64,000 bases of DNA from a virus. Positions 937 through 48,451 of the stretch are shown piece by piece. Position 1 is the first letter of the stretch; each line of letters opens with the position of its first letter. The DNA lies in the IMG/VR virus record IMGVR_UViG_3300025715_000001; one strand, written 5' to 3'. Both the position numbers and the translations under genes were made by a program. The notes beneath the pieces were generated by a model that saw nothing but the letters and a program-made list of their open reading frames with translations, ran no database searches and was not told the origin of the DNA.

Positions 937-1965
937 TCACTTCAGAGCTAGCGTATGATGCCCCATACGGAGAATATTCAGTGCAGCGTTGACATCACGG
1001 TCATGAACCGTATGGCATTCGCTGCACACCCATTCTCTGACCCCAAGACCCTTTCGACCTTTTGGGCCGCCTATCGAACCGCAACAGGAACAGGCTTGAG
1101 TTGTGAGGTGTTCAGAGACCTCACAGTACACCACCTTCCGCGCAATCGCTTTATATTCAAGAAGGTGGCGAAACATCGACCATCCGGCATCATTCACCGA
1201 TTTGGCCATGTTCGTTTTAGTCAACTTAGAACTACAGACATCCCCGACCACAATCAACTCACACTCTTTCGTGAGTCTATCGGATTCCTTGTGCAGAAAA
1301 TCCTTGCGCCGGTTGGCAATCTTGGCTTGAAGGTTACGCGCTTGCCGGGAACGACGCTTGCGCTGATGTTCCGCAATCCGCCGTTGCTGACTCCGATACC
1401 AGCGAGGCGCTTCAATCTTGCGACCATCCGAACACGTCGCCAGCGTTTTCAAGCCCAAGTCGATACCGACGTGTTGGGTTCCGGTTGTCGCTTCCGCTTC
1501 CGGGACTTCGCAGACGAAATTGACATACCAGCGACCCCGCGCATCCTGGGCAAAATTTCCTACCTTGATCGGGCCGGGGAGATCACGGCTGTTCCAAAAA
1601 CGGAAGGTGTGACCTGCATAGCACACGGTATCGTCCACCACCTTGACCCCGGACGCCTTGAACGGAATCCAGCCCAAAGACCGCTTGCCGCGCCAGCGCA
1701 ACTTACGCTTTTTGGCTTGCTTCCGACGTGTGGCATATTCATCGCACACCGCCTGCACGGTCTGCGAATGCAGGCCCAGTTCCTTGCTGCTACCCGTGGT
1801 CAATTTGCACAGGTCTTGATACGTCGGCCAGCGTTGATTCCAGCGCAGCGCGTGTTCCTGAGATTCATTACAGAAATTCCAGACCTGATTGCACGCGCGC
1901 GCCAAGACCGTGAGTTCGGCGGCGCAGGTGGAATCCTTGATTCGGTACTGAAAAGTCTTTATCAT
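937..1965 (-). CDS. tnpB: TnpB (OrfB) RNA-guided endonuclease of the IS200/IS605 family
   Basis: 342 aa. RuvC-like GIDLGLK, a later E, and DRDVNAALNI, plus zinc finger CSCCG...CSECH. The omega-RNA is expected to overlap its 3' end and the IS end near 900-1000. Confidence 0.9.
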   Translation of the reverse strand: MIKTFQYRIKDSTCAAELTVLARACNQVWNFCNESQEHALRWNQRWPTYQDLCKLTTGSSKELGLHSQTVQAVCDEYATRRKQAKKRKLRWRGKRSLGWIPFKASGVKVVDDTVCYAGHTFRFWNSRDLPGPIKVGNFAQDARGRWYVNFVCEVPEAEATTGTQHVGIDLGLKTLATCSDGRKIEAPRWYRSQQRRIAEHQRKRRSRQARNLQAKIANRRKDFLHKESDRLTKECELIVVGDVCSSKLTKTNMAKSVNDAGWSMFRHLLEYKAIARKVVYCEVSEHLTTQACSCCGSIGGPKGRKGLGVREWVCSECHTVHDRDVNAALNILRMGHHTLALK

Positions 1966-2990: not shown

Positions 2991-4513
2991 CAAGTCCAGT
3001 CAGCGGGAATGTCCGCGAAGTTGGAAACAGTTGAAACAGAATGACCCTGCCAGCAATCGGTTTTAATCGGCGTACCGGTGCCAAACGCGCAATTCCACAA
3101 ATCCGGGGCCACACCTTGATTGCCGGTGTACGAGGTCACGCGGAAACAGTTGGTAAAGTCCACGCTCTGATTGAGAAAACGGGTACTCTGCTCGCCATCC
3201 GCATAGAAGATGTTGGCGTTTTGCTGGAGTTTAGGACAAGAATAGAAGGTCGAATTAAAAGATGTGCATTGCGTATTATAGCGAAAGAGATCCGTGGGAA
3301 TCGAACCGGTTAGGCCGGGGCAATTATAGAACGTATAAGCAAACCCACTCGTCGAAACCAGCGTGTTGTAGCGAAAGAGATCAGCGGGAATCCCGGTGAG
3401 ATTGGTGCAGCCGCGAAACGTCTGAAAAAACCCACTCGTCGAAACCAGCGTGTTGTAGCGAAAGAGATCAGCGGGAATCCCGGTGAGATTGGTGCAACTG
3501 AAGAACGTATAACCAAACCCATCCGTTGAAACCTGGGTGTTGTATCTGAAGAGATCGGTCGGGATGGAACCGAAGAGATTGGTGCAACCGTAGAACGTCG
3601 CATTAAACCCACTCGTCGAAACCTGCGTATTGTATCTGAACAAATCAGCCGGAATGGAACCAGTGAGATTGCTGCAACTGTAGAACGTCTGAAAAAACCC
3701 ACTCGTCGAAACCTGCGTATTGTATCTGAACAAATCAGCCGGAATGGAACCGGTAAGATTGGTGCAGCCGCGAAACGTCTGAAAAAACCCACTCGTCGAA
3801 ACCTGGGTGTTGTATCTGAAGAGATCAGTGGGGATGGAACCGAAGAGATTGGTGCAATCGCGAAACGTCTGATTAAACCCATCCGTTGAAACCTGGGTGT
3901 TGTAGCGAAAGAGATCGGTCGGAATGGAACCGGTGAGATTGCTGCAACCGTAGAACGTATAAGCAAACCCACTCACCGAAACCAGCGTGTTGTATCTGAA
4001 GAGATCGGTCGGAATGGAACCAGTGAGATTGCTGCAGCCGCGAAACGTCAGAAAAAACCCATTCGTCGAAACCTGGGTGTTGTATCTGAAGAGATCGGTC
4101 GGAATAGAACGAAGCCCAGTATTCTGAAACGTACTCAGAAAATTCGCCAACCCCGGAATAAACGGGATCACCCCGGTCCCGATCAGCCGCGCCCGATCCG
4201 CTGCATTGCTGCCCAGGCGGATATTCCCGCTACTCCGAAACCGTCCGCTGATCTTGACGGTATGGGTCTTGACGAGTTGATAGGTATGCGTTTTCAGCCC
4301 AATGGTGGTGAAGAACTCCACCACACCATCCCCCCAATCAATGCGAAACTCTGGAGCCGTGCCCGCGTTGATGTCCACGGTATAGGTCTGACCCGGCGCG
4401 GTGATTTGCACTGCGAGATTCCAGGTGGCCGGACTGAGCGGGGCACGGGTGCGAAGTCCCGCGTCATCAATTTCAACAGCGCGGGAACGGGGGGAATAGC
4501 TGGCGGGGTACAT
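2990..4513 (-). CDS. tail fibre / receptor-binding protein with 10 tandem ~30-aa leucine-rich-type repeats
   Basis: Track ORF 2990..4627. The ATG at 4513 (MYPASYSP) follows the upstream stop at 4522. The repeat GSIPxDLFRYNTxVSxxGFxxTFxGCxNLT occurs 10 times. Confidence 0.75.
   Translation of the reverse strand: MYPASYSPRSRAVEIDDAGLRTRAPLSPATWNLAVQITAPGQTYTVDINAGTAPEFRIDWGDGVVEFFTTIGLKTHTYQLVKTHTVKISGRFRSSGNIRLGSNAADRARLIGTGVIPFIPGLANFLSTFQNTGLRSIPTDLFRYNTQVSTNGFFLTFRGCSNLTGSIPTDLFRYNTLVSVSGFAYTFYGCSNLTGSIPTDLFRYNTQVSTDGFNQTFRDCTNLFGSIPTDLFRYNTQVSTSGFFQTFRGCTNLTGSIPADLFRYNTQVSTSGFFQTFYSCSNLTGSIPADLFRYNTQVSTSGFNATFYGCTNLFGSIPTDLFRYNTQVSTDGFGYTFFSCTNLTGIPADLFRYNTLVSTSGFFQTFRGCTNLTGIPADLFRYNTLVSTSGFAYTFYNCPGLTGSIPTDLFRYNTQCTSFNSTFYSCPKLQQNANIFYADGEQSTRFLNQSVDFTNCFRVTSYTGNQGVAPDLWNCAFGTGTPIKTDCWQGHSVSTVSNFADIPADWT
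3230..4110 (-). repeat. about 10 tandem 87-90-nt coding repeats inside the fibre gene
   Basis: DNA units such as gaaacctgggtgttgtatctgaagagatc recur with a 90-nt period. The protein motif DLFRYNT occurs 10 times. Confidence 0.85.
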
Positions 4514-9499: not shown

Positions 9500-10357
9500 T
9501 CACGCCATCTCCTTCACAAACTGCCGGGCCACATAGACCACGGCCTTGCGCCGGGCGCCGGGCTTGGAGGGGGGCTGCACTTGAGAGATAACACCTTGAT
9601 CCAACAAAAGATTTAAGACTGCTTCGCGCTCTTGATCGGTAGCGTTGCGATAGGGCTTACAAAATTGTTGTAACGTGCGGTGACCGGCTCCGTTTTGTTT
9701 TTGAGTGATGATAAAGTCCAGTAACGATTCTTCTAGGGGTCCGCGCCGGTAACGTCCATGCTGAATCGGTTGGCGGGGTATCGGCGGCTGTTTTTCCAGC
9801 GCCTCAAGCACCGTAAGGTCGTTTATTAGGTCTTGAATCAATGGCTTGCCGCACTGCTGTTCCAGCTTCAGCGCCAGGGGAATCAGCGGCTCTGCCAGCT
9901 TCTGCACCGTCCAGTGCAGGCGAGTCAGGTTCTCCAGGGTGTCGTAATCCACGACCACCTTTCCTTTAAGCAAATCAGCAAGTTGCTGTGCGAGAACGGC
10001 AACATCGAGCGGCTGGGAGGGGGTGCCGGGCAGGCTGTAGCCGCCGGTTTTGCGGATCGAGGGGAGGACTTCTTCAAACAGCCAGGTTTCAAACCGCGCG
10101 GCTTCCGGGAGGGTGCTGCCCGTGATCAGCCGATAGGCGTCCGGTTCGTTGATGACGCGGACTTCTTGAACGCCGCCGGGCGTCTGAAGGGGGTGGTATT
10201 TCGCCGCCCCCTTGCAATGCTGTTTAAGAGCGCGAAGCGAGTCTTGATAACCGAGGACTTCGGCAACATCCTTGCCGACGAACCACGGATTGCCCTCGAT
10301 GTTGAAGGCGCGAACTTCGTGGGAATCAAACGAGAACGGAATGAGACTGCTAGACAT
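9500..10357 (-). CDS. BRO-N domain antirepressor-like protein with a C-terminal domain shared with the primase
   Basis: FSFDSHEVRAF..GNPWFVGKDVAEVLGY is a BRO-N pattern. ATG at 10357 with GGAG 8 nt upstream. The last ~25 aa are identical to the primase C-terminus. Confidence 0.8.
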   Translation of the reverse strand: MSSSLIPFSFDSHEVRAFNIEGNPWFVGKDVAEVLGYQDSLRALKQHCKGAAKYHPLQTPGGVQEVRVINEPDAYRLITGSTLPEAARFETWLFEEVLPSIRKTGGYSLPGTPSQPLDVAVLAQQLADLLKGKVVVDYDTLENLTRLHWTVQKLAEPLIPLALKLEQQCGKPLIQDLINDLTVLEALEKQPPIPRQPIQHGRYRRGPLEESLLDFIITQKQNGAGHRTLQQFCKPYRNATDQEREAVLNLLLDQGVISQVQPPSKPGARRKAVVYVARQFVKEMA

Positions 10358-10421
10358 GATGACAAACTCCAAGTAGGTAAAAATTTTTGGAGTTCGTCGC
10401 TTCCCTTCCTACGGGGATGGC

Positions 10422-10498
10422 GGCGAACGATACGGGGGTAGGAAATGCCGGTCTACTTGGACACCGGCCAACCCGAAGGTTGCCCCGCATCGTTCGCC
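10422..10498 (-). ncRNA. c4-like antisense RNA, copy 1 (77 nt)
   Basis: Minus-strand fold: a 16-bp closing helix, CAACC-UUCG-GGUUG, GCCGGU-GUCCAAGUAG-ACCGGC, and joining strand AUUUCCUA. Loop and joiner are complementary to boxes at 10551-10558/10569-10576 and 10368-10376/10406-10411. The tetraloop and wobbles only make sense on the minus strand. Confidence 0.6.
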
Positions 10499-10518
10499 AT
10501 CGTAAAGTGTACCGACGT

Positions 10519-10543
10519 AAAAAAAGCGCCGGTACGATGGCGC
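10519..10543 (-). terminator. intrinsic-terminator-like hairpin + U7 between primase and c4-like RNA 1
   Basis: Minus strand GCGCC-AUCGUACC-GGCGC followed by UUUUUUU. An alternative hairpin GGCGC-AUCA-GCGCC uses the same 5' arm. Confidence 0.45.
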
Positions 10544-10642
10544 TGATGCGCCAAGTAGATTCAACGGGTTTTCTACGCCCGGCCCCGGCAGTCGCCAAGG
10601 CCAGACCAGAATACGCCCGTGGATTCTGGCGCGCAAGGGGAG

Positions 10643-12949
10643 TCACGCCATCTCCTTCACAAACTGCCGGGCCACATAGACCACGGCCTTGCGCCGGGCG
10701 CCGGGCTTGGAGGTGGGCTGAATCTCGACCACCGCGTCGTCGGCCAGCAACTGCTTGATCAGGGCCTCACGTTTGTCGTCCGGCAAGTTGCGATAGGGCC
10801 GGCAATACTGCTGCAACGACCGGGTCCCCGCGCCCTTGCCTTTTTCCGTTGTGATGAAATCCAACACCCGCTCATACGCCGACAACTTGCCATCCTCGCT
10901 GGACAGCGCCGCGAATCGCGCCAGCAACCGATTCAGCCGCCGCACTTCGCTGTCTACGCCGGCCTGAATCACTGTTGGGGTAATGGCGGGCGCTGCCTGA
11001 TTGAGGCAAAACGCCAGCGCCGTCGCCTCGCGCCGCGCAATCAGCCGCGCGGTCGAGCGCAGCGTTCGCGCCGAACGCTGGATGGGGATTGCCTCCAGCG
11101 CCGCATAGAACGGCTCAATAGCTTGGGGGAAGGTCGCTCTAATTTGGGTCGGTAATTGGCTGGGCAAATTTACTCCGGCCAGATTGCCGGATCCCATGAC
11201 CGCCGTCGCCAGTGCCCGTAGTCCTGCGATCAGCGCCGCCGGGAATGGACCGGTGATGATCTGCTCTGCGGGCGCTTCGGTGAATTCGTCATTATTCAGA
11301 ATCCAGTACTGAATCTGCTCCAGCGCCCCACGGCCTACTTCCGAAAGTTTAAGCGCGGTCGCTAACTGGTCGTGGGACAGGGCCGCCAGCATCGTGAGGT
11401 GAGGCGCCCGAATGAGGTACTGACCGTCGATGCCGGGGTCCTGTAATTTGATGTCGTCCACGTCCATCGTGATCGGTGTGCCGTCCCAAACTTCGCTCAT
11501 CACTGTAAGCACTTGCTCGATAGCGCCCGCCGGCTGGCGTTTGGCGAATTGCAGAATTACGCCCCACTCGCTGCACAGATAGAGCAGGCTGGGCTGGCGC
11601 CACAGCAATTTATACACCTGTTGCGGGCTGGAAAGCCGTTGCTGGCGCACTGTTTTCTCCAGCCCCAACTGCTCCATGAGTTCGCGCACCACGGTCAGGT
11701 ACGGTCTGATTTCGCCCGTACTAGACGCCGCCAGCGCCAGATACAGCCCGGTGGGATCGCCCGACTGGCTAACGACCTGCCGGCCCGTCAGGTGCGCCAT
11801 GACCGCTTTAGCGGCCACCTGAGCGGCCAGAGGGCAGCGCATCGGCACTCTGGACAAAATCTCTTGTTCCAACTGCGCGAACAGGGGCACCAGCAACGGT
11901 GCAAGCGGCGCTTCGCCGGTTTCATCCACCTGATAGTTCGGTCTCTGTCCGTTGGCGCGCTGAAGTTCATCGGCAAAGCGGTCATGGGGATCCAGTGCTT
12001 TGAGCGTCTCCCAGGTTAACCCGCCCAGCCACGTTTCCGCATCGCCCTCCGCCTCGGTCCAGTCGGCCACATCCCAGCCCGTCGGCAACGTCGCGGGCAA
12101 CACCGCACACTGAAGCTCTGCCGCCCGTGCCATCAGCGCCTGGGCCACCTTGGTCATCGCCTTGAGGCCCGGCGCATCCGCATCCGGCAACAGCCACACG
12201 CTGCGCCCGGTCAGTGGCATCCAGTCGGCATGATCGGCGCTGCCCGCCCCGCCCGGCCACGTGATGACCACAAAATCAGCGAACAGCCGTTGTGCCGCGA
12301 CGGCGGTTTTTTCACCTTCGACCACCAGGACCGGCGCCGCTGGGCGCTGGGTTAAGGCGGGCTGGTTGTACAGCGGGCGCGGTTTAGGCCAGGTTTTGTT
12401 TTGCCAGCCCGAAACCTGCCAGTAGGTCAACGGGTAAAAATCCTTTTTGCCGCCCGGCTGATCCACGCGCCGCACATAGCCCAGCAGCCGGCCCTGCTGA
12501 TCCAGATAGCTCCAGACAGGTTGCCCCGCGTGCAGCGGGGGCGGCGGCGCGTCTTCTGGTATCGGCATCACGCAGACCTCATCCGGCGTTACGTGGATTC
12601 GGTCGCGCGCCTTAGCCAGGAACGGCGCGATGGCCGGGTCCACGCCCGCGCCGGCAAAACCGTTCAGGCCCAGTTGGCGCTCAATGTCGCCGGCGGCTTC
12701 GCCTTGGCTGAGGTTCTGCACATACGCCCACAAGCTAATCAAATCGCCGCCGGCGTCGCCGGTAGCGAAATCCGCCCACTTGCCGGTCAGGATATTGATG
12801 CGGAAATTACCGGGGGTCCGGTCGGCGCGAGTCGGATTGAGTACGTCATACTCGGCCCCGTGCAGCCGCCCGCCCGGCAACCAGGCCAGCAGCAGCCCTG
12901 GACAAGCCTGGAGCGCAGCCCGCGCAATGGCTGGAAAGTCGGCGCTCAT
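10643..12949 (-). CDS. bifunctional primase / DUF3987-type helicase-like replication protein
   Basis: 768 aa. Toprim-like VLVVEGEKTA...LLPDADAPG, a long DUF3987-like middle, and a C-terminal winged-helix-like tail. Confidence 0.8.
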   Translation of the reverse strand: MSADFPAIARAALQACPGLLLAWLPGGRLHGAEYDVLNPTRADRTPGNFRINILTGKWADFATGDAGGDLISLWAYVQNLSQGEAAGDIERQLGLNGFAGAGVDPAIAPFLAKARDRIHVTPDEVCVMPIPEDAPPPPLHAGQPVWSYLDQQGRLLGYVRRVDQPGGKKDFYPLTYWQVSGWQNKTWPKPRPLYNQPALTQRPAAPVLVVEGEKTAVAAQRLFADFVVITWPGGAGSADHADWMPLTGRSVWLLPDADAPGLKAMTKVAQALMARAAELQCAVLPATLPTGWDVADWTEAEGDAETWLGGLTWETLKALDPHDRFADELQRANGQRPNYQVDETGEAPLAPLLVPLFAQLEQEILSRVPMRCPLAAQVAAKAVMAHLTGRQVVSQSGDPTGLYLALAASSTGEIRPYLTVVRELMEQLGLEKTVRQQRLSSPQQVYKLLWRQPSLLYLCSEWGVILQFAKRQPAGAIEQVLTVMSEVWDGTPITMDVDDIKLQDPGIDGQYLIRAPHLTMLAALSHDQLATALKLSEVGRGALEQIQYWILNNDEFTEAPAEQIITGPFPAALIAGLRALATAVMGSGNLAGVNLPSQLPTQIRATFPQAIEPFYAALEAIPIQRSARTLRSTARLIARREATALAFCLNQAAPAITPTVIQAGVDSEVRRLNRLLARFAALSSEDGKLSAYERVLDFITTEKGKGAGTRSLQQYCRPYRNLPDDKREALIKQLLADDAVVEIQPTSKPGARRKAVVYVARQFVKEMA

Positions 12950-13081: not shown

Positions 13082-13834
13082 TCATGACAACCATTCCTTG
13101 ATCCATTCCTTGACCGCATCTGCTCCCCATTCTTGAGCAGTCGCGTTCAGATACTCCATAAAATCTCGTTTTTCCGCTTCCATGCGACGAGATTTTGCTT
13201 CCTGTTCCTTGCGTTGTTTGTCGGCTGCCGCCTCGGCCAGCTTGCGCGCTTTTTCGGATTCTTCTGCTTGTTTTTGGGCATCCAGCCAAGCGAAAAAAGC
13301 GTTTCGGTTTTCGTCACCGGCTTGTTTCGGCGTGATGGATAGCCCGGTTTCTTTGCAAAAGGCCGACCACCAGTTGTAAATGGTTTTAGCTGGCGTATTA
13401 CTGGTTTTTGCCAAATCATCAACCCAATTGCCATTAATTTCATTCTTGCCATTGGCAAAAACATCTGTTTGGCAATTTTCTGATAACTTGGCAATCAACC
13501 GCCCCACTTCCGCCGCGAACGCTTTCCGTTCCGCGCCGGTCAGATCGTTGCGGATGCGGTTTTCTTGAAGTTCAGCCAGCAGGCATTCATCGTCACTGGT
13601 ATCTTCCGGGAAAATGCGCGCCTGAATTTCAGGCCAACCCAGCGCCTTGACCGCTTCTAAACGGTGTGCTCCAAACACGAGCCGATATCCGGCTTTCGTT
13701 TGTTTGACGCCGATGTTTTGCAGCAACCCTTGTTGCTCGATGGATTTTTGCAGGTCAGCCACCACCACAAAATCAATCGGGCGCTTGCGACTTTCAACAA
13801 TAATTTTGGAAAGAGAAATTTTTTCTGAAATCAT
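13082..13834 (-). CDS. ParB-like nuclease (ParB/Srx N-terminal) domain protein
   Basis: GLLQNIGV....YRLVFGAHRLEAVKALGW pattern. Confidence 0.7.
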   Translation of the reverse strand: MISEKISLSKIIVESRKRPIDFVVVADLQKSIEQQGLLQNIGVKQTKAGYRLVFGAHRLEAVKALGWPEIQARIFPEDTSDDECLLAELQENRIRNDLTGAERKAFAAEVGRLIAKLSENCQTDVFANGKNEINGNWVDDLAKTSNTPAKTIYNWWSAFCKETGLSITPKQAGDENRNAFFAWLDAQKQAEESEKARKLAEAAADKQRKEQEAKSRRMEAEKRDFMEYLNATAQEWGADAVKEWIKEWLS

Positions 13835-14304
13835 TACAGCAACTCCCGATTTGCGGCACGGAAAAAGGATTCAAAATCAGCAAAAACCGTTAGAAGAGCG
13901 TCTTGTTGTTGCAAACACCACTCCACTGAACAGCGTTTTGCGCCTTTCCCGATCAGCAAAAGAATTGCTGGAAGCCCAATTTTTCGCAGACAGGCGATAG
14001 TATAGGGGAATTTCTCATCAGCAGACCCGGACGTTTCTTGGTATTTGCATTCAATGATGAGGCCGTCAGGATACTTGACCGAGTTCCAAACATAGAAATC
14101 AACCCGCATCGGCAACCCGTAGATACTCAAGAAATCGCCGCGATGCTGGTAAATAAAAAACGGCTGATCGCGTTCTTCAGGAATCGCGGCGACCTGAATA
14201 TATCCTTTTGATTTTAGGCGCTGAATAATTTGCTCCTCAAACGCCCTGCCGTTTTGATTGGCCTGGCGGCCTTGCTACTGAATCAATTTCGCCAAAGCGT
14301 TCAT
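13834..14304 (-). pseudogene. PD-(D/E)XK restriction-endonuclease-like ORF interrupted by an in-frame TAG at codon 10
   Basis: The ATG at 14304 overlaps the Dam stop. TAG lies at 14277-14275. The same frame continues QGRQANQNGRAFEEQIIQRLKSKGY...MRVDFYVW...LIIECKYQ (D...ExK). The track only reports the TTG-initiated 13834..14130 remainder. Confidence 0.55.
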
Positions 14305-14900
14305 GTCCGCCACCCCATTGTTTTGCTGATGCACCAGCCAAACCGGGAAAACTCGACGACAAACGCTTCAGCGCGGGATTCCGATCCAAAATAGAAAAAG
14401 GTCTGTCCGCGAGTGTTTCCGCTGACTCGCTTGCCATCGGTGGCTTCAAATGAGATGCGATGGTGGGTAAAACAGACGGCGGTGCTGCGTTCGCGTAAAG
14501 CGCGGAACCATTGAGTGTCAGTAGCGTTATTGACTAAAATAACCGCCTGTTCAATATGCCCGGCGCTCAAATTCTCAAGAAACGTCTCAATTGCGCGGGT
14601 AATCAATCCAGAAGAATAAGGGGGGTTCATCCAGACCCGAACGCCGTTGGGGTATTTGCGCTTATCCTTGCGCCACGCATTAACGAATGCTGACCGATCT
14701 TCAGTCAAAATTCGGGTAGCGCGGATGGTCTCATTAGCTTTTTCGGAAGAGAAAGGATCGAGATCAATGCCGTCCATCACAGCGCGGGCGGCTTCGACAT
14801 AAGAAATGGGGGTATACCACGAATCCGCATCGCGGTCGGGAAGAGTGGCGCCAGGCTTGCGACCAATATAGCCAAGCCGATTAACATCAGCGATTAACAT
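14301..14900 (-). CDS. phage Dam-family DNA N6-adenine methyltransferase
   Basis: DSWYTP... and the catalytic WMNPPYS motif. ATG at 14900 with GGAG 8 nt upstream. The longer track ORF start lies inside the structured RNA. Confidence 0.85.
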   Translation of the reverse strand: MLIADVNRLGYIGRKPGATLPDRDADSWYTPISYVEAARAVMDGIDLDPFSSEKANETIRATRILTEDRSAFVNAWRKDKRKYPNGVRVWMNPPYSSGLITRAIETFLENLSAGHIEQAVILVNNATDTQWFRALRERSTAVCFTHHRISFEATDGKRVSGNTRGQTFFYFGSESRAEAFVVEFSRFGWCISKTMGWRT

Positions 14901-14953
14901 GACAGACTCCTTGCAAAATTGGAGTCCGCCACTTCGTTTTCCACGACGAGGGT

Positions 14954-15031
14954 GGCGGACGGTACGGGGCTGTGGAAAAGCCGGTCTGCAAGGACACCGG
15001 CCAGCCTTACGGCTACCCCGCGCCATCCGCC
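14954..15031 (-). ncRNA. c4-like antisense RNA, copy 2 (78 nt)
   Basis: Same architecture as copy 1 with compensatory changes: UAGCC-GUAA-GGCUG, GCCGGU-GUCCUUGCAG-ACCGGC, joiner UUUUCCACAG. Matching boxes lie at 15082-15089/15099-15105 and 14908-14915/14937-14944. Confidence 0.6.
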
Positions 15032-15051
15032 ATTGAGGGAGAATCGGCCAT

Positions 15052-15075
15052 AAAAAAAGCGCCGATTCAAGGCGC
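15052..15075 (-). terminator. intrinsic-terminator-like hairpin + U7 upstream of c4-like RNA 2
   Basis: Minus strand GCGCC-UUGAAUC-GGCGC + UUUUUUU. Alternative hairpin GGCGC-GCA-GCGCC. Confidence 0.45.
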
Positions 15076-15161
15076 TGCGCGCCTTGCAGTTCGACCGGTT
15101 TCCACGCCGGGTTGCCGCTGCTGCGACAACGGTTAAAGCATACCCCGATACCGCGCGCTTT

Positions 15162-15977
15162 TCAACCATGGCCCGCTTCCCCGAACACGCCGGAACTCAA
15201 CCCGTGCTCCCCGCCGACCAGCAGATCCAGCAGCACCTCGATACGGACGCGGCGGTGATCCCAGACGCGCGGATGCTGAACGAGGAACTTCCGCACCGCT
15301 GGCATCGTAATCTGGTACTGCAACCGCCGTGTTTCCAGGTCATCCGCGCACGCTTCGCTGGCAATCCCGACTCCGCGATCTGCCTTTAGCCAGCCTTTCT
15401 CAATCCACTGCGCCACCGATTTACTCGCGATGCCCAGCATTTTTCCGACCTCGCTGGCGCTGTACCAGGGGCGATTCCAGCCGAGTTGCAATTCCCCTAC
15501 CCGATCCGCGACCGCGGATAGCGACCGCTGAAAACCGGCCTGATGCAACCGCCGATGCAGCGTGCTGAGCGCGTAGCCCCGTTCGATGCCGTCGCGCAAA
15601 AGGTCAATTTCAGCGTCCGTCCAGCGGCGCCAGGGCTGTTCTGCCACCCGTCGCACGCCCAGCATCCCCGCCCGCCATTTCAACCAACTGACCTCGCGGT
15701 CTACTTCCCGCGCCAGCCGTTTCAATTCCGGCTTGGGCTGGCGGTAGGCGCGTTTGATCGCCGCGTCAATCCACTCGGAGGATTCCTGCCGGCGATGCGG
15801 CATCCGACCGGCAATCCGCAACCGCAGCGCCCCGGCTTTCCCCTTGATCGAGTTTTTACTACGCTGCGGCAAAGCCGCCTGCGCGGCGGCCAGACCGCCC
15901 TTGGGCCACGCCGCTTTGAGCGCCTCCATCTCCCAGTCCTGCCAGGGAGTTTTCACCGCGCCCGGTTTACCCGCCAT
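15162..15977 (-). CDS. putative DNA-binding protein (Myb/SANT-like W-repeats + HTH)
   Basis: Repeated W..W/E..L segments, and an HTH-like YSASEVGKMLGIASKSVAQWIEKGWL. Confidence 0.5.
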   Translation of the reverse strand: MAGKPGAVKTPWQDWEMEALKAAWPKGGLAAAQAALPQRSKNSIKGKAGALRLRIAGRMPHRRQESSEWIDAAIKRAYRQPKPELKRLAREVDREVSWLKWRAGMLGVRRVAEQPWRRWTDAEIDLLRDGIERGYALSTLHRRLHQAGFQRSLSAVADRVGELQLGWNRPWYSASEVGKMLGIASKSVAQWIEKGWLKADRGVGIASEACADDLETRRLQYQITMPAVRKFLVQHPRVWDHRRVRIEVLLDLLVGGEHGLSSGVFGEAGHG

Positions 15978-17964: not shown

Positions 17965-19257
17965 TTACGCTGTTGCATAGTCGAATCCATCGTTGCGCTG
18001 AATCAGGGTGAAGTGTTTGTAGCTGGCCCCTACGGTTCCCGCTGCGGTTTTGATGTCCAGCGTTCCCGTGGCGCGAATTCCGGTGAGCCGGGCAACATAA
18101 CTTCCGGCATATTTGCCTTTCGGCATGTGGAGTTTCACGATGTCCCCGGTTGAAAACCCATGGACTCGTTTGATGCGCCCGGCATTACCGCGTGGAAATC
18201 CGAACCGGTCGGTGCGCACTACTTGATGCGTTCCGCGCCCCTTGGCGGTGATAACCAGCGGCTTCATGCCGTCTCGAATCGAAACCATCTCGCCCGATTC
18301 CGCCACGCATACGGCGTCAATCCAGTGGTCTTTTGCGTAGCCTTGCCGAGTCCGGTTGAACTTGGTGCGCCCGCCGCTTCCGGTGGTGACGGGTAGCCAC
18401 GCTTTCAGGCGATTGACCAATGCCCATCGGCTGGCATTCACCGCCGCCGCGTCTTTCAGCGGCGCTTTGGCTTGCGCCTTGATCTTGCGGAGTATCTCCG
18501 GCTTGTCTTTGAGAAATTCATCAATCGGGCGACTGCTCTTGCGCTGATTGCAGGGGTGACAAGCCAGAGCCAGATTGGATATCCGGTTGCTCCCACCCGC
18601 CGCTTTGGGCTGGATATGCTCGACCTGCAACGGCACGTCCTTCTTACCACAATAGGCACAGGTGCGATGCCATTTTTCGAGCAGATATTCCCGAACTTCG
18701 TAGCCGGCCAATTCGCCCTGCTGATACTCGGTTCCGCTGACTTCCGGGTTGACCATCGCCTGCATGTCGAACTTGACCAGTTCAACCGTCGCCTCGGTGA
18801 TGGGGCAACGCGCCGCCAACTTGCGAATGACGGACTCGGTATTGACCACCCGCGATTCAATGGACGGCGGTAGCCAGCCGGTAGTGCGCGTGCGGTTCAA
18901 AAACCGGGCTGGCCGATAGCGAGTCTTGCGCCCGCGCCGTCCTCGGCGTAATGAGCGGCGAGATTCAAGGCTGTTCTTGATCGCCTGTCCGCGATGATTC
19001 AAGTTCGAGCCGAACAGTACCACCGCGCCCTGCTGCTCGAAGTGGCCGACCAGGGCGATGCCGGTCGTTTTGCTGCCCGGATCAATTTTGACTTCAACCG
19101 GCTGTATGTCGCCATCGGCCCGGTCTTTCAGAATGATGGTGAACGGATGCAACCGATAGACGGCGGCTTTGCCCGCCGTCAACAACTTGCGCGCCCGCGC
19201 TGGTCGGCAGGGCATCAAGGGCTTCTTCGTGTTGCTCAAGACAAAAACGGAATTCAT
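17965..19257 (-). CDS. iscB: IscB, OMEGA-family RNA-guided nuclease (PLMP + RuvC + bridge helix + HNH)
   Basis: KKPLMPCRPARARKLL (PLMP), KIDPGSKTTGIAL (RuvC-I), RRSLRRGRRGRKTRYRPARF (Arg-rich helix), CAYCG..LQVEHIQPKAAGGSNRISNLALACHPCNQRK (HNH), DHWIDAVCVA (RuvC-III). ATG at 19257. Confidence 0.85.
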   Translation of the reverse strand: MNSVFVLSNTKKPLMPCRPARARKLLTAGKAAVYRLHPFTIILKDRADGDIQPVEVKIDPGSKTTGIALVGHFEQQGAVVLFGSNLNHRGQAIKNSLESRRSLRRGRRGRKTRYRPARFLNRTRTTGWLPPSIESRVVNTESVIRKLAARCPITEATVELVKFDMQAMVNPEVSGTEYQQGELAGYEVREYLLEKWHRTCAYCGKKDVPLQVEHIQPKAAGGSNRISNLALACHPCNQRKSSRPIDEFLKDKPEILRKIKAQAKAPLKDAAAVNASRWALVNRLKAWLPVTTGSGGRTKFNRTRQGYAKDHWIDAVCVAESGEMVSIRDGMKPLVITAKGRGTHQVVRTDRFGFPRGNAGRIKRVHGFSTGDIVKLHMPKGKYAGSYVARLTGIRATGTLDIKTAAGTVGASYKHFTLIQRNDGFDYATA

Positions 19258-19520
19258 GGGTTTACACCCTCTCGAAAATCGGTAACGGTCATCTCGCAGG
19301 GAGTGCAACGGTCGTTCAGTCGCAGCGTTCGCGCATTCACCACGTCGCGCAGCATCGCTTTTGACGACAGGGCTTGAGACTGATGAAGCATCTCAAGGTG
19401 TCTCGCTTTCGCTTCACGTTGCATCGTCTACTCTCTGATTAGAAAGTCTGCTGGTTGAGTCTCATGCGGATTTGGGGCTGTCAGGGATGACAGTCACAAA
19501 CCCGCACGGCGGCGACTCAA
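19258..19520 (-). ncRNA. candidate IscB omega-RNA (structured 5' region); ends uncertain
   Basis: Minus-strand helices GGUUGAGUC...GACUCAACC enclosing CUGUCA-UCCC-UGACAG, and CUUGAGA-UGCUUCAUCA-GUCUCAAG. The position immediately 5' of iscB is as expected for IscB systems. Confidence 0.5.
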
Positions 19521-27573: not shown

Positions 27574-28872
27574 ATGGCCACGATCAACTACAGCGTTGAC
27601 CCGACCCTGGCGGCGCTGGACGCCCTGCACACACAGGCGTCCAGCCACGACGCGCCTCGGCGCTATCTGGGCGCGTCGCTGATCGGCCAGGAGTGTGCGC
27701 GGCGCATCTGGTTCAGTTTCCGCTGGACCTTGCCCCGGTCGTTCCCGGCCACTTCGTACCGCGCGATCCAGGACGGCCATCGGGGGGAGGCGCAAATGGC
27801 CGGCTGGCTGCGCACGGTGCCGGGGATTGAACTGTGGACGACCGATCCCGATGACCCGCAACGGCCTATTGGGTTTGTCGCCTGTTCCGGGCATTTCCGG
27901 GGGCACCTCGACGGCATTATCAGCGGTTTGTACCAGGCAACCCAGGCTCCGCACGTCTGGGAGCACAAGGTCTGCAACGAGACCAAATGGAACAAGTTGG
28001 TCAAGTTGATTCAGCAGCACGGCGAGAAAGCGGCGCTGGCGCTGTGGGATGCCGTCTACTACGCCCAGGCTCAGGTGTACATGCACCAGATGGACCTGAC
28101 TCGCCATTATCTGACGGTGGGCACGCCGGGCAACCGGCAACTGGTCTCCTGTCGCACGGAGTATCGCGCCCAGGCCGCCAAGGCCCTACTCAAAAAAGCC
28201 GAGCAGATCATCACCGCCGACCGCCCACCGCTCAAAATTAGCGACAACCCGACGTGGTATCAGTGCAAGCTCTGTGACTACCACGCGCTCTGTCACGGCC
28301 CGGCTTTGCCGGCGGTGAACTGCCGCACCTGCGCCCACAGCACGGCCCGGCTCGATGAGTCCCGGCCTTGGACCTGCGAACAGCGCCAGGCCGCGATTGA
28401 CGGCGACCAGGCGGGCTGTGACCACCATGCGTTTCATCCCGACCTGCTGGCCAACACTGCCGAGCCGGTCAACGCCGACCCAAAAACCGGCACGATCACG
28501 TTTCGTAGAAAGAGCGATGGCGCGACTTGGGACAACGGGTTGAACGGATTAAAAAGCGCAGATTGGATAAAAATAAACAAGGAATTTGCAGAAAACTCAC
28601 AAAAAAACGCTGAATTTTCTATTCATGATGAAAATAAAGTGCTGACGGCCCTGGCCGCCGAGTCGGCGATTCCCGCCGATGCCCTGCTGTCTGGCGCTCT
28701 CGACGAGGCCGAATGGAATCAGGTGACCGATGCGTGCATCCGGCTTTGCCATGCCTGGACCGGCGAGGATCGGCGCAAACGGACCCTGGCGGCGCTGATT
28801 GAGCAGATGGACAGCGCCTATTACGCGCTGGCAGAGCGCGTGCAAATCCAAATCAAGGGGGTGGGGGCGTGA
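27574..28872 (+). CDS. PD-(D/E)XK (YqaJ/Cas4-like) exonuclease with a Cys cluster
   Basis: GHLDGII...VWEHKV (D...ExK) and CKLCDYHALC...CRTCAH cysteines. Confidence 0.65.
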   Translation: MATINYSVDPTLAALDALHTQASSHDAPRRYLGASLIGQECARRIWFSFRWTLPRSFPATSYRAIQDGHRGEAQMAGWLRTVPGIELWTTDPDDPQRPIGFVACSGHFRGHLDGIISGLYQATQAPHVWEHKVCNETKWNKLVKLIQQHGEKAALALWDAVYYAQAQVYMHQMDLTRHYLTVGTPGNRQLVSCRTEYRAQAAKALLKKAEQIITADRPPLKISDNPTWYQCKLCDYHALCHGPALPAVNCRTCAHSTARLDESRPWTCEQRQAAIDGDQAGCDHHAFHPDLLANTAEPVNADPKTGTITFRRKSDGATWDNGLNGLKSADWIKINKEFAENSQKNAEFSIHDENKVLTALAAESAIPADALLSGALDEAEWNQVTDACIRLCHAWTGEDRRKRTLAALIEQMDSAYYALAERVQIQIKGVGA

Positions 28873-45997: not shown

Positions 45998-48394
45998 ATG
46001 CAACGATCCCTGCACGACTATCTGACGGGCGGCCCAGTACGCGGCCCTGGCACCCCGACCAGTGACAGCATCCTGGCGCGGCTCTCGAACGGCGAGTACG
46101 TCCTGCCCAAGGTGGCCGTGGATCAGGTCGGTGTCGAGAATCTGGAGGCGATCCGGCGCGCGGCACTGGCGAAGACGCCCAAGCTGGCGCTGGGCGGGCC
46201 GATTTCGGGCGGGCTGAATTTCCAGAGCGAAGAACCCACGTCTACCACGTTTTATCCATCCGGCCTCCCAACAGCATCCGCCCCCTCGTTCGGTGATGCG
46301 ATTGGCGGTACAAATACCGGGATCAAACTGGGCGGTTCTCCAGCCGCAACGCCGCCCGGTTCACTGAACTCGTATGGCAACGACATGTCACTGGCCAACC
46401 GGATGAATGCCGGGGCTGAGGCGATGCGCACGATGCGCGAAGGTTCTGCCGCGCCACCCGCCAAGCCCGCTGATGATTTTGCGACGACCCTGGCCAAGGC
46501 CCTGCAAGCCAACGACCCCGCGAAACAGGCCGATGAGGCGCGAAAGGCCGCGCAAGCCAAGGCCGATCCGCTGGACGTGGCAAGTGGACGGTTTGACCGG
46601 GAGTATGCGCCGGGGATGGCGGCGGGCGGGTTGATCAGTCAAAAACAGTGGGAAGGGTTGCCGAGGTTTGCGGAGGGAACTCCTGCTTCTCCAGACGAAG
46701 AAAGTGACGGAGAATTTGATTGGAATCGGGGATTACTCCCCCAAGCGATTGACGCGATTCAGCGAATCCAAACGATCCCGCCAGCCGAACGTACCAGAGC
46801 GCAAAACCTGTTTACCGGGCGGGGACTTTCCGGAAAAGAACAAGAAGCACTCGTTCCGCCTTCTCCGAAACCTACCCCATTATCGCCAACCGGACAGGTG
46901 GTTTCAACACCAATACCATCTGCGGCCCCGCCTGCGCCATCATCGGTTAGCGCGGATGATAGGCAGCGTTATATCGCGTTAGAGGATCAGCTAAAAAAAT
47001 CGGGAGGAACGCCGCCGCCTAGACCTCCTTCAATGATGGGGCCGACAGCAACCCCTACGCCATCGCCAAAAGCGCAGACTGGAGCTGTGACGACGGGCGT
47101 GGCCACATCGCCAGGTTCGGTAACGCCGCCCGCCGTACCCTCCTTTCCCTCACTCATTCCTGGTGGCAGTTGGCAAGACTTGGCGCAGCCCGGCGAATGG
47201 GAACAGACTAAACAAGCTCTGCAAAATCGCAATCCTACTCCCGCCAAGAGCGTGATGCTGCAACCCGGCGCTCGTGATGCTGGCGTCTACGCGCAGCAAG
47301 TCGGCGGGAAGATTCTAGCCAATGGCCCAGGCCCCGGCATCGGCCCACAAGCTGTAGTCGCGGCCCCCTCCCGCCCCATCGGCACTCAGTCGTACACGAC
47401 CGGCCAGCCCTTTGAGCCGTCGCAAGGAACGGCGCCCCCGCCGCCGCTAATGGGGTCCCAGCGGATTATGTCCGGGAATGGTGTTACCGGACCCGTCACC
47501 ACGGGCGGATCCAATGTCCCAATTTACCAGACCGACTACACCGTGTTCGGCCCCAAAGGCCAACAGGGCACACTGTCGGTCACCGGCCCCGATCAGCGCG
47601 TCGGCGGCGGAACCGTGTCGCAACCCGATCAAGGCAACGGCGGGACCGTCGAGGGCAACGTGGCGGCGCTCAATCGCCAGTACGAAGCCGTGAAATCCCG
47701 CAACGAAGCCTATGGCTGGGGTGGCGCTTCCGGTTCCGCATTGCCCGCCGCGCCCGCCTCAGTGGATATGTGGGCGCGTCCCGGTGATTCGTTTGGGGAC
47801 TCCCAGATGCGCCAGGCGCGGTACGAGGGGCTGCTGAAAGACGCTGCCAACCAGAAAGGATTGGGCGCAAAACGCCGCGCTGCCGCGATGATTGATGCGG
47901 CCACCGGGCTGCTCGCCCCCGGCGCGGCAACCGCCAAGCTCAACGCCGAACAACAGCAGGCCGCGAACAGCCTGACCGGGCAACTGGCTCAGGCGCGCGC
48001 TCAGCAAGAGGCGTCCAAGTATGGCGCGGATGTCGGGCTGGCCGGCCACAAATACACGGCAGATGCGAGCTTGGCCGGAGCGCGGCTCAAGGCCGAGCAA
48101 GAGGCCCAGCAAGCAAGCCGTGCTGCCACGCAAAAAGATAACGAAATTTCGATTAGCGCATATCGGGCAAGAACCGAAGCGGATCGCGTCAAAAAAGAAA
48201 TGGCGGGATTATCAACCGCTGAAAAAAATGAGGCTATTTTGCGTTTAGCGGATCGGTTATCGCAGTTACCCCAAAATTCGCCAGAAGCCATAAATATCCG
48301 GACGGTATTGCAGTACCTGCAACCGTCGAGTAATCAAGACGATGCGCTGGCGGCGACAGAGGCACTGATAAAAGCGCAAGCTGCCGCCAAATAA
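45998..48394 (+). CDS. large low-complexity virion protein (internal or ejection-type, inferred)
   Basis: 798 aa, P/A/G/Q-rich. N-terminal GGPVRGPGTPTSDSILARLSNGEYVLP segment. Confidence 0.5.
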   Translation: MQRSLHDYLTGGPVRGPGTPTSDSILARLSNGEYVLPKVAVDQVGVENLEAIRRAALAKTPKLALGGPISGGLNFQSEEPTSTTFYPSGLPTASAPSFGDAIGGTNTGIKLGGSPAATPPGSLNSYGNDMSLANRMNAGAEAMRTMREGSAAPPAKPADDFATTLAKALQANDPAKQADEARKAAQAKADPLDVASGRFDREYAPGMAAGGLISQKQWEGLPRFAEGTPASPDEESDGEFDWNRGLLPQAIDAIQRIQTIPPAERTRAQNLFTGRGLSGKEQEALVPPSPKPTPLSPTGQVVSTPIPSAAPPAPSSVSADDRQRYIALEDQLKKSGGTPPPRPPSMMGPTATPTPSPKAQTGAVTTGVATSPGSVTPPAVPSFPSLIPGGSWQDLAQPGEWEQTKQALQNRNPTPAKSVMLQPGARDAGVYAQQVGGKILANGPGPGIGPQAVVAAPSRPIGTQSYTTGQPFEPSQGTAPPPPLMGSQRIMSGNGVTGPVTTGGSNVPIYQTDYTVFGPKGQQGTLSVTGPDQRVGGGTVSQPDQGNGGTVEGNVAALNRQYEAVKSRNEAYGWGGASGSALPAAPASVDMWARPGDSFGDSQMRQARYEGLLKDAANQKGLGAKRRAAAMIDAATGLLAPGAATAKLNAEQQQAANSLTGQLAQARAQQEASKYGADVGLAGHKYTADASLAGARLKAEQEAQQASRAATQKDNEISISAYRARTEADRVKKEMAGLSTAEKNEAILRLADRLSQLPQNSPEAINIRTVLQYLQPSSNQDDALAATEALIKAQAAAK

Positions 48395-48451
48395 TCATCA
48401 TCAGGCCTGCGGTGATCGCAGTCCGTTTGACACGATAGACAGGATTTGACC

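Follow-up and report, generated by a model that had tools for sequence, protein, structure and literature searches.

The c4 RNA of the immI regions of phages P1 and P7 (Citron & Schuster 1990; Rfam family RF01695) acts around the ribosome site to repress the translation of ant (PMC12197685; Weinberg 2010, Additional file 1). At the isrK locus of Salmonella Gifsy-1 (RF01394; Hershko-Shalev et al. 2016) termination in the leader yields a stable short RNA, while the read-through mRNA is translationally inactive until the short RNA activates it in trans (PMC4825925). The CI RNA of the satellite phage P4 (seqA-cI-seqC) pairs with the flanking seqA and seqC, with premature termination before the replication genes, and keeps these genes off in the lysogen (PMC4825925). 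The subject of this work is a cassette (module 2) on the minus strand, at positions 14898-15165, of a 64,000-nucleotide stretch of viral DNA (IMG/VR record IMGVR_UViG_3300025715_000001; "the window" below means this whole stretch), which carries a C4-type RNA, termed C4-2, directly in front of a gene for an N6-adenine DNA methyltransferase (dam). Its membership in the C4 family, RNA structure, target boxes and their co-variation, gene content and the conservation of the C4-Dam linkage are established by the comparisons given below. We consider it probable (about 0.75) that this is a complete c4-type cassette of the phage P1 immI kind, in which C4-2 blocks the translation of dam.

The Rfam cmscan of the whole window, with curated gathering thresholds (45 bits for C4 RF01695), identified a full-length match to C4 (model positions 1-87, 64.3 bits) at 14948-15037(-). 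The other C4 match (69.7 bits, 10416-10504(-)) belongs to a further cassette, referred to as module 1 with its RNA C4-1, and no other part of the 64-kb window passes an Rfam threshold. A tRNA or tmRNA reading was rejected, as ARAGORN finds none. The initial annotation, made from the letters of the window alone, had proposed a second c4-like module with a core at 15031->14954, which is the helix-bounded part of the second C4 match. The RNA, its recognition elements and its target boxes are listed here under the a/b nomenclature fixed on the annotated immI region of phage P1 (NC_005856):

14948-15037, minus strand: C4-2 antisense RNA gene (RF01695, our own covariance model, fold and covariation)
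15032-14953, minus strand: closing helix P1 of C4-2 (RF01695 alignment and fold)
14996-14985, minus strand: P3 loop UGUCCUUGCAGA, from the sequence
14986-14994, minus strand: element b' UCCUUGCAG in the P3 loop, partner of b1 and b2 (exact complements on the plus strand at 14986 and 14987)
14979-14970, minus strand: joiner UUUUCCACAG 3' of P3, from the sequence
14972-14979, minus strand: element a' UUUUCCAC in the joiner, partner of a1 and a2 (its complement GTGGAAAA on the plus strand at 14972)
15105-15099, minus strand: box a1, GTGGAAA, from the sequence
15089-15082, minus strand: box b1, CTGCAAGG, from the sequence
14944-14937, minus strand: box a2, GTGGAAAA, from the sequence, starting 4 nt past the C4 match
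14915-14908, minus strand: box b2, TGCAAGGA / UGCAAGGA, from the sequence, overlapping the Shine-Dalgarno (SD) sequence AAGGAG at 14912-14907

Our own covariance model scores C4-2 at 89.2 bits, and the predicted fold (minimum free energy -51 kcal/mol, z -5.1) consists of the long closing helix around P2, with its GUAA tetraloop, and P3, with its large loop, as is typical of the family. The mature RNA is predicted to span ~15031-14951 (~80 nt), with ends taken from the phage P1 annotation; its termini appear compatible with RNase P processing (AU^GGCGG at the 5' end, GCCACC at the 3' end), like those of phage P1 c4 (48343-48419). Alignment of the two modules confirmed the substitutions described in the initial annotation, i.e. 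the P2 stem CAACC/GGUUG of module 1 replaced by UAGCC/GGCUG, its UUCG tetraloop by GUAA and two A-U pairs of the closing helix by G-C pairs; the claim that every helix is kept through compensatory changes goes one position too far, as the closing helix contains a mismatch that is discussed below. Covariation in homologues, a check that had been named beforehand, bore the structure out: among 10 distinct relatives 95.9% of the helix cells are paired and compensatory changes occur in 13 of the 27 pairs, while 0 of 500 shuffles reach the observed level and slid controls show 30-46% pairing. Transcription of the minus strand, likewise proposed earlier, agrees with the G-U pairs, which form on that strand only, and with the covariance models, which give the two modules 89 and 84 bits on the minus strand and nothing or 29 bits on the plus strand.

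The four target boxes lie where they had been placed before, in the order a1-b1-C4-a2-b2-SD, and both order and spacing match the annotated phage P1. Each box (at least a 7-mer) has a P-value of 0.015-0.03 in shuffled flanks, with a product of 1.6e-7, and coincidence is thereby excluded. The pattern GTGGAA-N8-38-GCAAGG occurs in the 64 kb only at the two cognate leaders, and no further a+b site pair was found in the window outside them. The locus thus shares with the P1/P7 system the three-helix RNA, the b' element complementary to a box over an SD, the a' target just after the RNA, the second a/b pair upstream, the promoter position and the RNase P-compatible ends. It differs in its recognition sequences, which are unrelated, in the position of b2, which lies over the icd ribosome site in phage P1 and over the dam SD here, in the presence of a second cassette 4.5 kb downstream, and in its cargo, for the P1 cassette gates icd-ant while module 2 precedes dam, a nuclease gene, a ParB_N gene and a primase gene, with no antirepressor among them. 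The missing antirepressor is no bar to family membership, because this cargo is a trait of the P1 system and not of the RNA family.

Comparative evidence for a connection between C4 and dam comes from relatives of the window, all of which are contigs of uncultured phages (metagenomes, IMG/VR; L-numbered loci). No cultured relative was found: megablast/blastn searches with the region returned zero matches among 50,697 phage records, tblastn of Dam gave only matches of 35% identity or less, and a GTDB scan with Dam identified only two distant loci, neither with C4. In the uncultured phage contigs the cassette stands directly before Dam homologues of 72-96% identity, with above-threshold Rfam C4 matches in L002, L022/23, L027/29, L028, L035-37 and L024-26, to which our own covariance model adds L048 and L265. 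Eight different a'/b' codes were distinguished (the window, L265, L048, L002, L022/27, L028, L035 and L024; the C4 sequences of L022 and L027 are identical), and the boxes have changed in step with them; the exceptions are L024, which is without an a2 box, and L265, in which b2 has a single mismatch to b'. Because these eight Dam-linked cassettes keep their elements matched while the sequences change, functional selection is indicated. The C4-dam wiring suggested in the initial annotation is borne out as far as linkage and matched codes are concerned, and the control of Dam itself is predicted from homology and anatomy. The most informative comparison is that of L265:150-465 with 14890-15200(-) of the window: Dam is 96% identical, ~95 nt of upstream sequence and the region of the SD helix and dam are near-identical, and all six elements (a1/b1/b'/a'/a2/b2) are replaced, by GTAGCAA / CAGTTAGG / CCUAACUG / UUGCUAC / GTAGCAAG / CAGCTAGGA, respectively. 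The RNA code of these near-identical phages has been exchanged as one block; specificity likewise differs between the close relatives P1 and P7.

The dam start codon (ATG, 14900-14898) is preceded at 7 nt by the SD AAGGAG, and the leader between C4-2 and dam folds into two elements:

14934-14946, minus strand: small hairpin that presents a2 (fold)
14899-14932, minus strand: 12-bp helix GUGGCGGACUCC / GGAGUCUGUCAU, in which the SD and the first two bases (AU) of the dam start codon are paired (RNA fold)

Two closing pairs of the a2 hairpin are compensatory in 4-5 of nine leaders. The SD helix (-21.5 kcal/mol, z -4.7) has b2 spanning its loop and 3' arm, and its CUCC:GGAG pairing is invariant in all nine leaders. 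The 5' arm of this helix, GUGGCGGAC (14924-14932(-)), is at the same time perfectly complementary to the 3' strand of the C4 closing helix, GUCCGCCAC (14952-14960(-)). An unprocessed transcript could consequently toggle between a state with C4 folded and the SD hidden and one with C4 unfolded and the SD free, comparable to structures A and B of isrK; the pairing energy of the C4 3' strand is nearly the same with cognate and non-cognate dam leaders (-13.0 vs -12.1 kcal/mol), the outer stem of helix P1 being conserved.

The genes behind this leader follow in the order given by the initial annotation (dam, a broken nuclease gene, a ParB-type gene and the primase), as verified by Pfam/PHROG searches, tblastn and translation:

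14301-14900, minus strand: dam, 199-aa N6-adenine DNA methyltransferase, first gene after the cassette (PF05869, E 1.9e-17; PHROG 111; NPPY motif)
13834-14304, minus strand: PDDEXK_11 nuclease gene, its ATG overlapping the dam stop codon (tblastn, 85% identity over 156 aa to an L022 protein)
13082-13834, minus strand: ParB_N-domain protein, 250 aa (PF02195; PHROG 3264, 4715)
10643-12949, minus strand: primase-like protein, 768 aa, Toprim/DUF6371, the last gene of the unit (PHROG 239, 3022, 6088; Pfam DUF6371, Toprim_3)

The PDDEXK_11 gene is interrupted by a lone in-frame stop at codon 10 (14277-14275); in L266, the Dam of which is 99% identical, this codon encodes Q and the protein is otherwise identical, and the stop is a read error or else a nonsense mutation of very recent origin. 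The dam-PDDEXK_11-ParB_N-primase block is conserved in relatives as an early/replication module 3' of cro-like genes, with VapE/Toprim primases at the equivalent position. Because terminase, portal and tape-measure genes are also present, the window can be assigned to a tailed phage or prophage; one relative contig carries an integrase gene beside a tRNA gene.

Upstream of C4-2 we identified a leader that adds several elements to the module:

15137-15165, minus strand: promoter-like site, TTGAAA at 15165-15160, 17-nt spacer, TATGCT at 15142-15137 (consensus scan)
15052-15130, minus strand: isrK / c4-a1b1-like leader, including b1 (sub-threshold Rfam match)
15130-15111, minus strand: leader hairpin 1 (alignment to the isrK consensus)
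15110-15095, minus strand: leader hairpin 2, with a1 in its loop (alignment to the isrK consensus)
15069-15085, minus strand: hairpin A, AAGGCGC-gca-GCGCCUU, its 5' arm overlapping b1 and its 3' arm being the 5' arm of the terminator
15052-15076, minus strand: terminator-like hairpin AGCGCC-uugaauc-GGCGCU followed by U7 (terminator scan; isrK stem and U tail)
15041-15068, minus strand: helix GAAUCGGC (15068-15061) / GCCGAUUC (15048-15041), which encloses the U-run (minimum-energy folds of 10 leaders)

A TTGNNN-17-TANNNT pattern lies 121-132 nt before the C4 match in 8 of 9 related cassettes, and the position of the promoter-like site corresponds to that of the annotated P1c4 (P51b) promoter of phage P1. 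The leader of module 2 matches isrK RF01394 over the full model (33.3 bits, E 1.5e-4, below the threshold of 50), with no c4-a1b1 RF03163 match (threshold 46.7) among those listed for it; the leader of module 1 scores 34.6 bits for isrK and 24.5 bits for c4-a1b1, both below threshold. The leaders of relatives and of phage P1, directly 5' of C4, range from 35 to 44 bits for isrK and from 27 to 51 bits for c4-a1b1. Because the phage P1 leader itself reaches just 35.1 bits, the boundary of the isrK family has to be regarded as loose. With c4-a1b1 (Weinberg et al. 2010; RF03163) and IsrK the leader shares the two hairpins with a1 in the second loop, the b1 box, the terminator hairpin with its U tail abutting the C4-type RNA on the 5' side, and the sequestration of the ribosome site in the read-through transcript. 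It differs in scoring below both thresholds (50 and 46.7) and in its cargo, as Gifsy-1 gates orf45-anrP, while module 2 is without an upstream small ORF and has dam first.

At minimum energy the free leader folds into hairpin A; with b1 kept from pairing, the terminator forms instead (these folds were judged by eye, as an automatic classifier, which counted any small hairpin abutting a U-run, was too lenient). Phage P1 has the same three-part complementarity in other letters (UGCGG/CCGCA/UGCGG). Of 30 distinct cassettes among the matches listed, 27 have a hairpin and U-run in the interval from b1 to C4. The arms of the helix enclosing the U-run, which is possible in read-through transcripts only, vary while their complementarity is kept (GUACCGGCG/CGUCGGUAC, GACAGGC/GCCUGUC, UGUUGGC/GCCAACA). 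The original view of the module as an SD block is supported by the location of b2 over the SD, but it had overlooked the isrK-like leader with its terminator, the promoter-like site and the SD helix, and because of these elements the circuit exceeds a simple SD block.

Transcription, processing, repression and its direction, as well as any effect beyond dam, are what we infer from this anatomy. The promoter-like site at 15165-15137 would drive the leader, with a1 in a hairpin loop and b1 beside the terminator, and read-through transcripts would contain C4-2, presumably excised by RNase P at AU^GG, like phage P1 c4. The free RNA of ~80 nt would pair through b' (UCCUUGCAG) with b2 over the dam SD and through a' (UUUUCCAC) with a2, 30 nt upstream. 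Such pairing should block ribosome loading on dam, the first gene of the dam-nuclease-ParB_N-primase unit, and the downstream genes may be silenced through translational coupling and polarity.

The specificity of this pairing can be assessed within the window, by comparison with module 1:

10352-10614, minus strand: module 1 (Rfam, terminator scan, Pfam/PHROG)
10601-10519, minus strand: leader of module 1, a1 GTAGAAAA and b1 CTACTTGG, terminator at 10544-10519
10504-10416, minus strand: C4-1 (RF01695, 69.7 bits)
Between C4-1 and the ant gene, minus strand: a2 GTAGGAAG and b2 CTACTTGGA over the SD, from the sequence
9500-10357, minus strand: Bro-N antirepressor gene after module 1 (Pfam/PHROG)

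Module 1 gates an antirepressor (the Bro-N protein), as the P1 cassette does. The b' loops of C4-1 and C4-2 differ at 3 of 8 positions, and in the RNAduplex analysis C4-2 b' gives -13.0 with its own dam leader vs -7.5 with the ant leader, while C4-1 b' gives -12.9 with its own leader vs -6.5 with the dam leader. Only this b'/b2 matrix is clean, RNAduplex on whole leaders being noisy for a' and the upstream leaders, where G+C-rich oligonucleotides pair with the conserved GGCGC. The switched specificity claimed in the initial annotation is therefore clear at the b' loop and only partial at the a' joiners. Because the C4-2 b' loop mismatches the targets of module 1, the antirepressor and the methylase/replication operon appear to be gated separately. 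The two RNAs had also been called paralogs; they are related copies (74% identity), but not products of a recent internal duplication, because C4-2 is at least as close to the cassette of L102.

The leader and terminator of module 1 (10519-10544(-)) lie directly 3' of the primase gene, and L102 has the same order (primase, leader, C4, ant). Transcripts of dam-primase could enter the a1/b1 decoy region of module 1 and largely end there, and the two gates would then possibly be coupled. A bolder proposal, which we regard as speculative and rather improbable, is that of two orthogonal C4/isrK-type gates in series on one early transcript, the second providing P4-like replication immunity independent of a repressor protein, with dam-primase transcription making the C4-1 decoy and opening the antirepressor gate, and with portable cassettes whose codes are block-swapped. 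If so, C4 cassettes would be units of promoter, decoy, terminator, repressor RNA and SD trap suitable for any operon, and block-swapping of the two-part code between near-identical phages would create new immunity types.

Several observations weigh against the simple model in which C4-2 blocks dam translation. There is a single C-A mismatch within the closing helix of C4-2. The a' elements UUUUCCAC and UUUCCUAC differ by one mismatch and two wobbles in 8 positions and are partly cross-reactive. The terminator stands between the promoter and C4, and C4 output may be low; the behaviour of sigma-70 and RNase P in the host is assumed. Several close Dam relatives (77-81% identity: L003, L030-34, L038 and L051) carry no cassette, and because of this absence the cassette must be dispensable for the operon; all distant Dam relatives are without it as well, and among relatives of the primase in IMG/VR C4 is found in 1 of 44 loci (L102, an antirepressor-type cassette after the primase). 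Finally, the dam SD and AUG are already self-locked in the 12-bp helix, and the read-through mRNA of the homologous isrK locus is inactive until the short leader RNA activates it; both the net sign and the main actor could therefore differ from those of phage P1.

This last point leads to a tentative alternative, to which we give distinctly less than even odds, which makes the short leader RNA the principal switch, on the pattern of isrK, and C4-2 one arm of a three-RNA balance. Most transcripts would end at 15076-15052, yielding an RNA of ~85-95 nt with a1 and b1 (its start assumed just 3' of the -10 element), and the silent read-through dam mRNA would be switched on in trans by titration of C4-2 and/or by remodelling of the leader. 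Full-length, although sub-threshold, isrK matches including terminator and U tail in both modules of the window, in relatives and in phage P1 agree with this, as do the frequency of hairpin and U-run between b1 and C4, the z-score of the SD/AUG helix and the alternative structures offered by the perfect complementarity of its 5' arm to the C4 3' strand. The published isrK mechanism provides a precedent, with IsrK complementary to the processed downstream RNA STnc1160 (PMC4825925), and a competition of a1/b1 with a2/b2 was proposed by Citron and Schuster, as quoted by Weinberg. On the other hand, the isrK scores (33-44) fall short of the threshold of 50, the alternative pairing hardly distinguishes cognate from non-cognate leaders, c4 is a repressor by P1 genetics, and the terminator is a predicted one. 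Such a balance would be a serious complement to the simple model and not exclusive of it. Attenuation as in P4, a weaker complement, seems unlikely: C4-2 acting on nascent b1 (and a1) would block hairpin A and free GCGCC, causing termination before C4 and dam-primase. Hairpin A and the terminator are indeed mutually exclusive, b1 overlaps the 5' arm of hairpin A, folding with b1 blocked yields the terminator in the subfamily of the window and in phage P1, and from this subfamily (GGCGC/GCGCC/GGCGC) to P1 the three segments have changed in concert. The operon also ends in a primase gene, and the P4 alpha gene encodes a primase. Yet cassettes of the enterobacterial type form the terminator whether b1 is free or not, and the switch is thus not general; the three segments are invariant inside the subfamily, with no internal covariation, the energies are near-equal in some members (L028, L102), and the location of b2 over the SD in every cassette argues for translational control. 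CI RNA is a small RNA processed from an operon leader, as is predicted for C4-2, and likewise has targets on both sides, but acts by premature termination through one element, seqB, while module 2 has two elements and its main target over the SD (the likeness to P4 was drawn from the published description).

That module 2 is an inactive relic of cassette exchange, with no regulation of dam, we hold to be very improbable. The C-A mismatch, the decay at the locus suggested by the nonsense codon in the neighbouring nuclease gene and the lack of the cassette in some close Dam relatives would fit a relic, but the mismatched column is unpaired in 3 of 10 relatives too, the score is above threshold, the four boxes, promoter-like site, terminator and SD helix are intact, and the persistent matching in eight Dam-linked cassettes despite sequence change needs selection. 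There is next to no chance that the region is simply protein-coding, either as an N-extended Dam (ORF 14301-15026, 241 aa) or as the 91-aa ORF 14894-15169. Both ORFs exist, and "Dam" was called at 236-269 aa in some relatives (P0007, P0008); yet a strong SD precedes the ATG at 14900, Dam homology begins there, the homologous ATG was chosen as gene start in most relatives, and these vary by paired compensatory changes and whole-loop swaps, codons not being preserved.

To determine how unusual the arrangement is, an IMG/VR pattern scan was carried out for this C4 subfamily; it returned at least 119 stretches, and examination of 80 loci gave 78 matches with 32 distinct C4s (single-sequence folds, used to extract the loops, drew P3 wrongly in roughly one cassette out of four). 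Among the matches listed, ~30 further cassettes have b1 at -50 to -70, a2 at +1 to +4 and b2 at +27 to +41; altogether the box positions hold in ~40 cassettes, with b2 over the SD every time. For 17 representatives among these matches the first downstream ORF was inspected: 13 have a Pfam family (Bro-N 4, ORF6N 3, Derepression 2, AntA 1, P22_AR_C 1, pRha 1, HTH_35 1) and none is Dam, i.e. antirepressor-type proteins dominate after related C4s in this set. Two C4 cassettes with different codes, on one strand and 1.5-3.2 kb apart, are present on each of two contigs similar to E. coli lambdoid prophages, every cassette preceding an ORF6N antirepressor paralogue:

L154, 4063-4147 and 7322-7406: C4 cassettes with different b' (UUUCCGUAC, AUGUUUCGA) and a shared a'
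L165, 3731-3815 and 2146-2229, minus strand: C4 cassettes differing in both a' and b'

The Group 1 sRNAs of Acinetobacter baumannii AB5075 comprise many C4-like copies per genome (PMC5320573), and tandem C4/isrK/Xcc1 matches are known from Xylella (PMC12189769). The assertion that two hetero-specific c4 RNAs in one genome are unusual therefore holds in the sense of uncommon, but not of unique: in all these cases, as in the window, several C4-type RNAs with different loops occur per replicon. The difference is in what is gated, both cassettes of L154 and L165 preceding ORF6N antirepressors, while the window has one antirepressor and one methylase/replication operon. In the library of papers searched, none was found that ties c4 to a methylase or primase or describes a C4-Dam context, and a 2025 review describes c4 solely as a regulator of ant (PMC12197685). 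The RNA family and the layout are thus already known, P4 CI offers an earlier case of a related RNA that controls replication genes, and the Dam/replication cargo and the second orthogonal cassette are a noteworthy, incremental variation.

No new kind of mechanism is involved here, but rather a known switch in a less usual place: a C4 cassette that recurs, within a clade of uncultured temperate phages, in front of a Dam-nuclease-ParB-primase operon which it would gate. One phage can hold two differently coded cassettes, and near-identical phages can differ by a six-element block swap. The locus provides programmable, orthogonal RNA gates in a compact natural form and ties together three literatures usually kept apart (P1 c4, Salmonella IsrK and P4 CI), and the window, L265 and L048 offer ready matched and mismatched pairs for defining minimal specificity determinants.

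Some relatives carry other elements near dam. In L030, a C4-less Dam relative, there is a match to Proteo-phage-1 RF03044 5' of dam (3493-3566, 44.6 bits) and a second on the other strand near the contig start (178-263(-), 44.3 bits). The C4-less L039-41 have two matches to tRNA models 5' of dam (L039:2131-2203, 2478-2615). In L022 a cluster of iteron-like GCTACG / GTAGCT repeats (13170-13430) immediately follows the primase gene, with a lysozyme-like gene behind it; the cluster is a possible replication origin, and the window has module 1 there instead.

As to the recognition sequences, CTGCAAGG (b1 of C4-2) has six extra plus-strand copies in the window (5885, 7152, 29468, 50666, 52886, 59876; 1.3 expected), with no common context and no nearby a box, probably a codon or composition effect. 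The sequence GTAGAAAGAGCGATGGCGCGACTTGG at 28505-28530(+), within a gene for a Cas4-domain exonuclease (27574-28872), fits the a-then-b pattern of C4-1, but with cores of only 6-7 nt and 0.06 expected per window it is probably a chance match. The early genes of the window also include a TnpB/IS605 OrfB-type gene with a Cas12f1-like TNB domain (937-1965(-)) and an RRXRR-HNH endonuclease gene (17965-19308(-)); OrfB_IS605 insertions occur in L024 and L043 as well, that of L043 inside the Dam operon.

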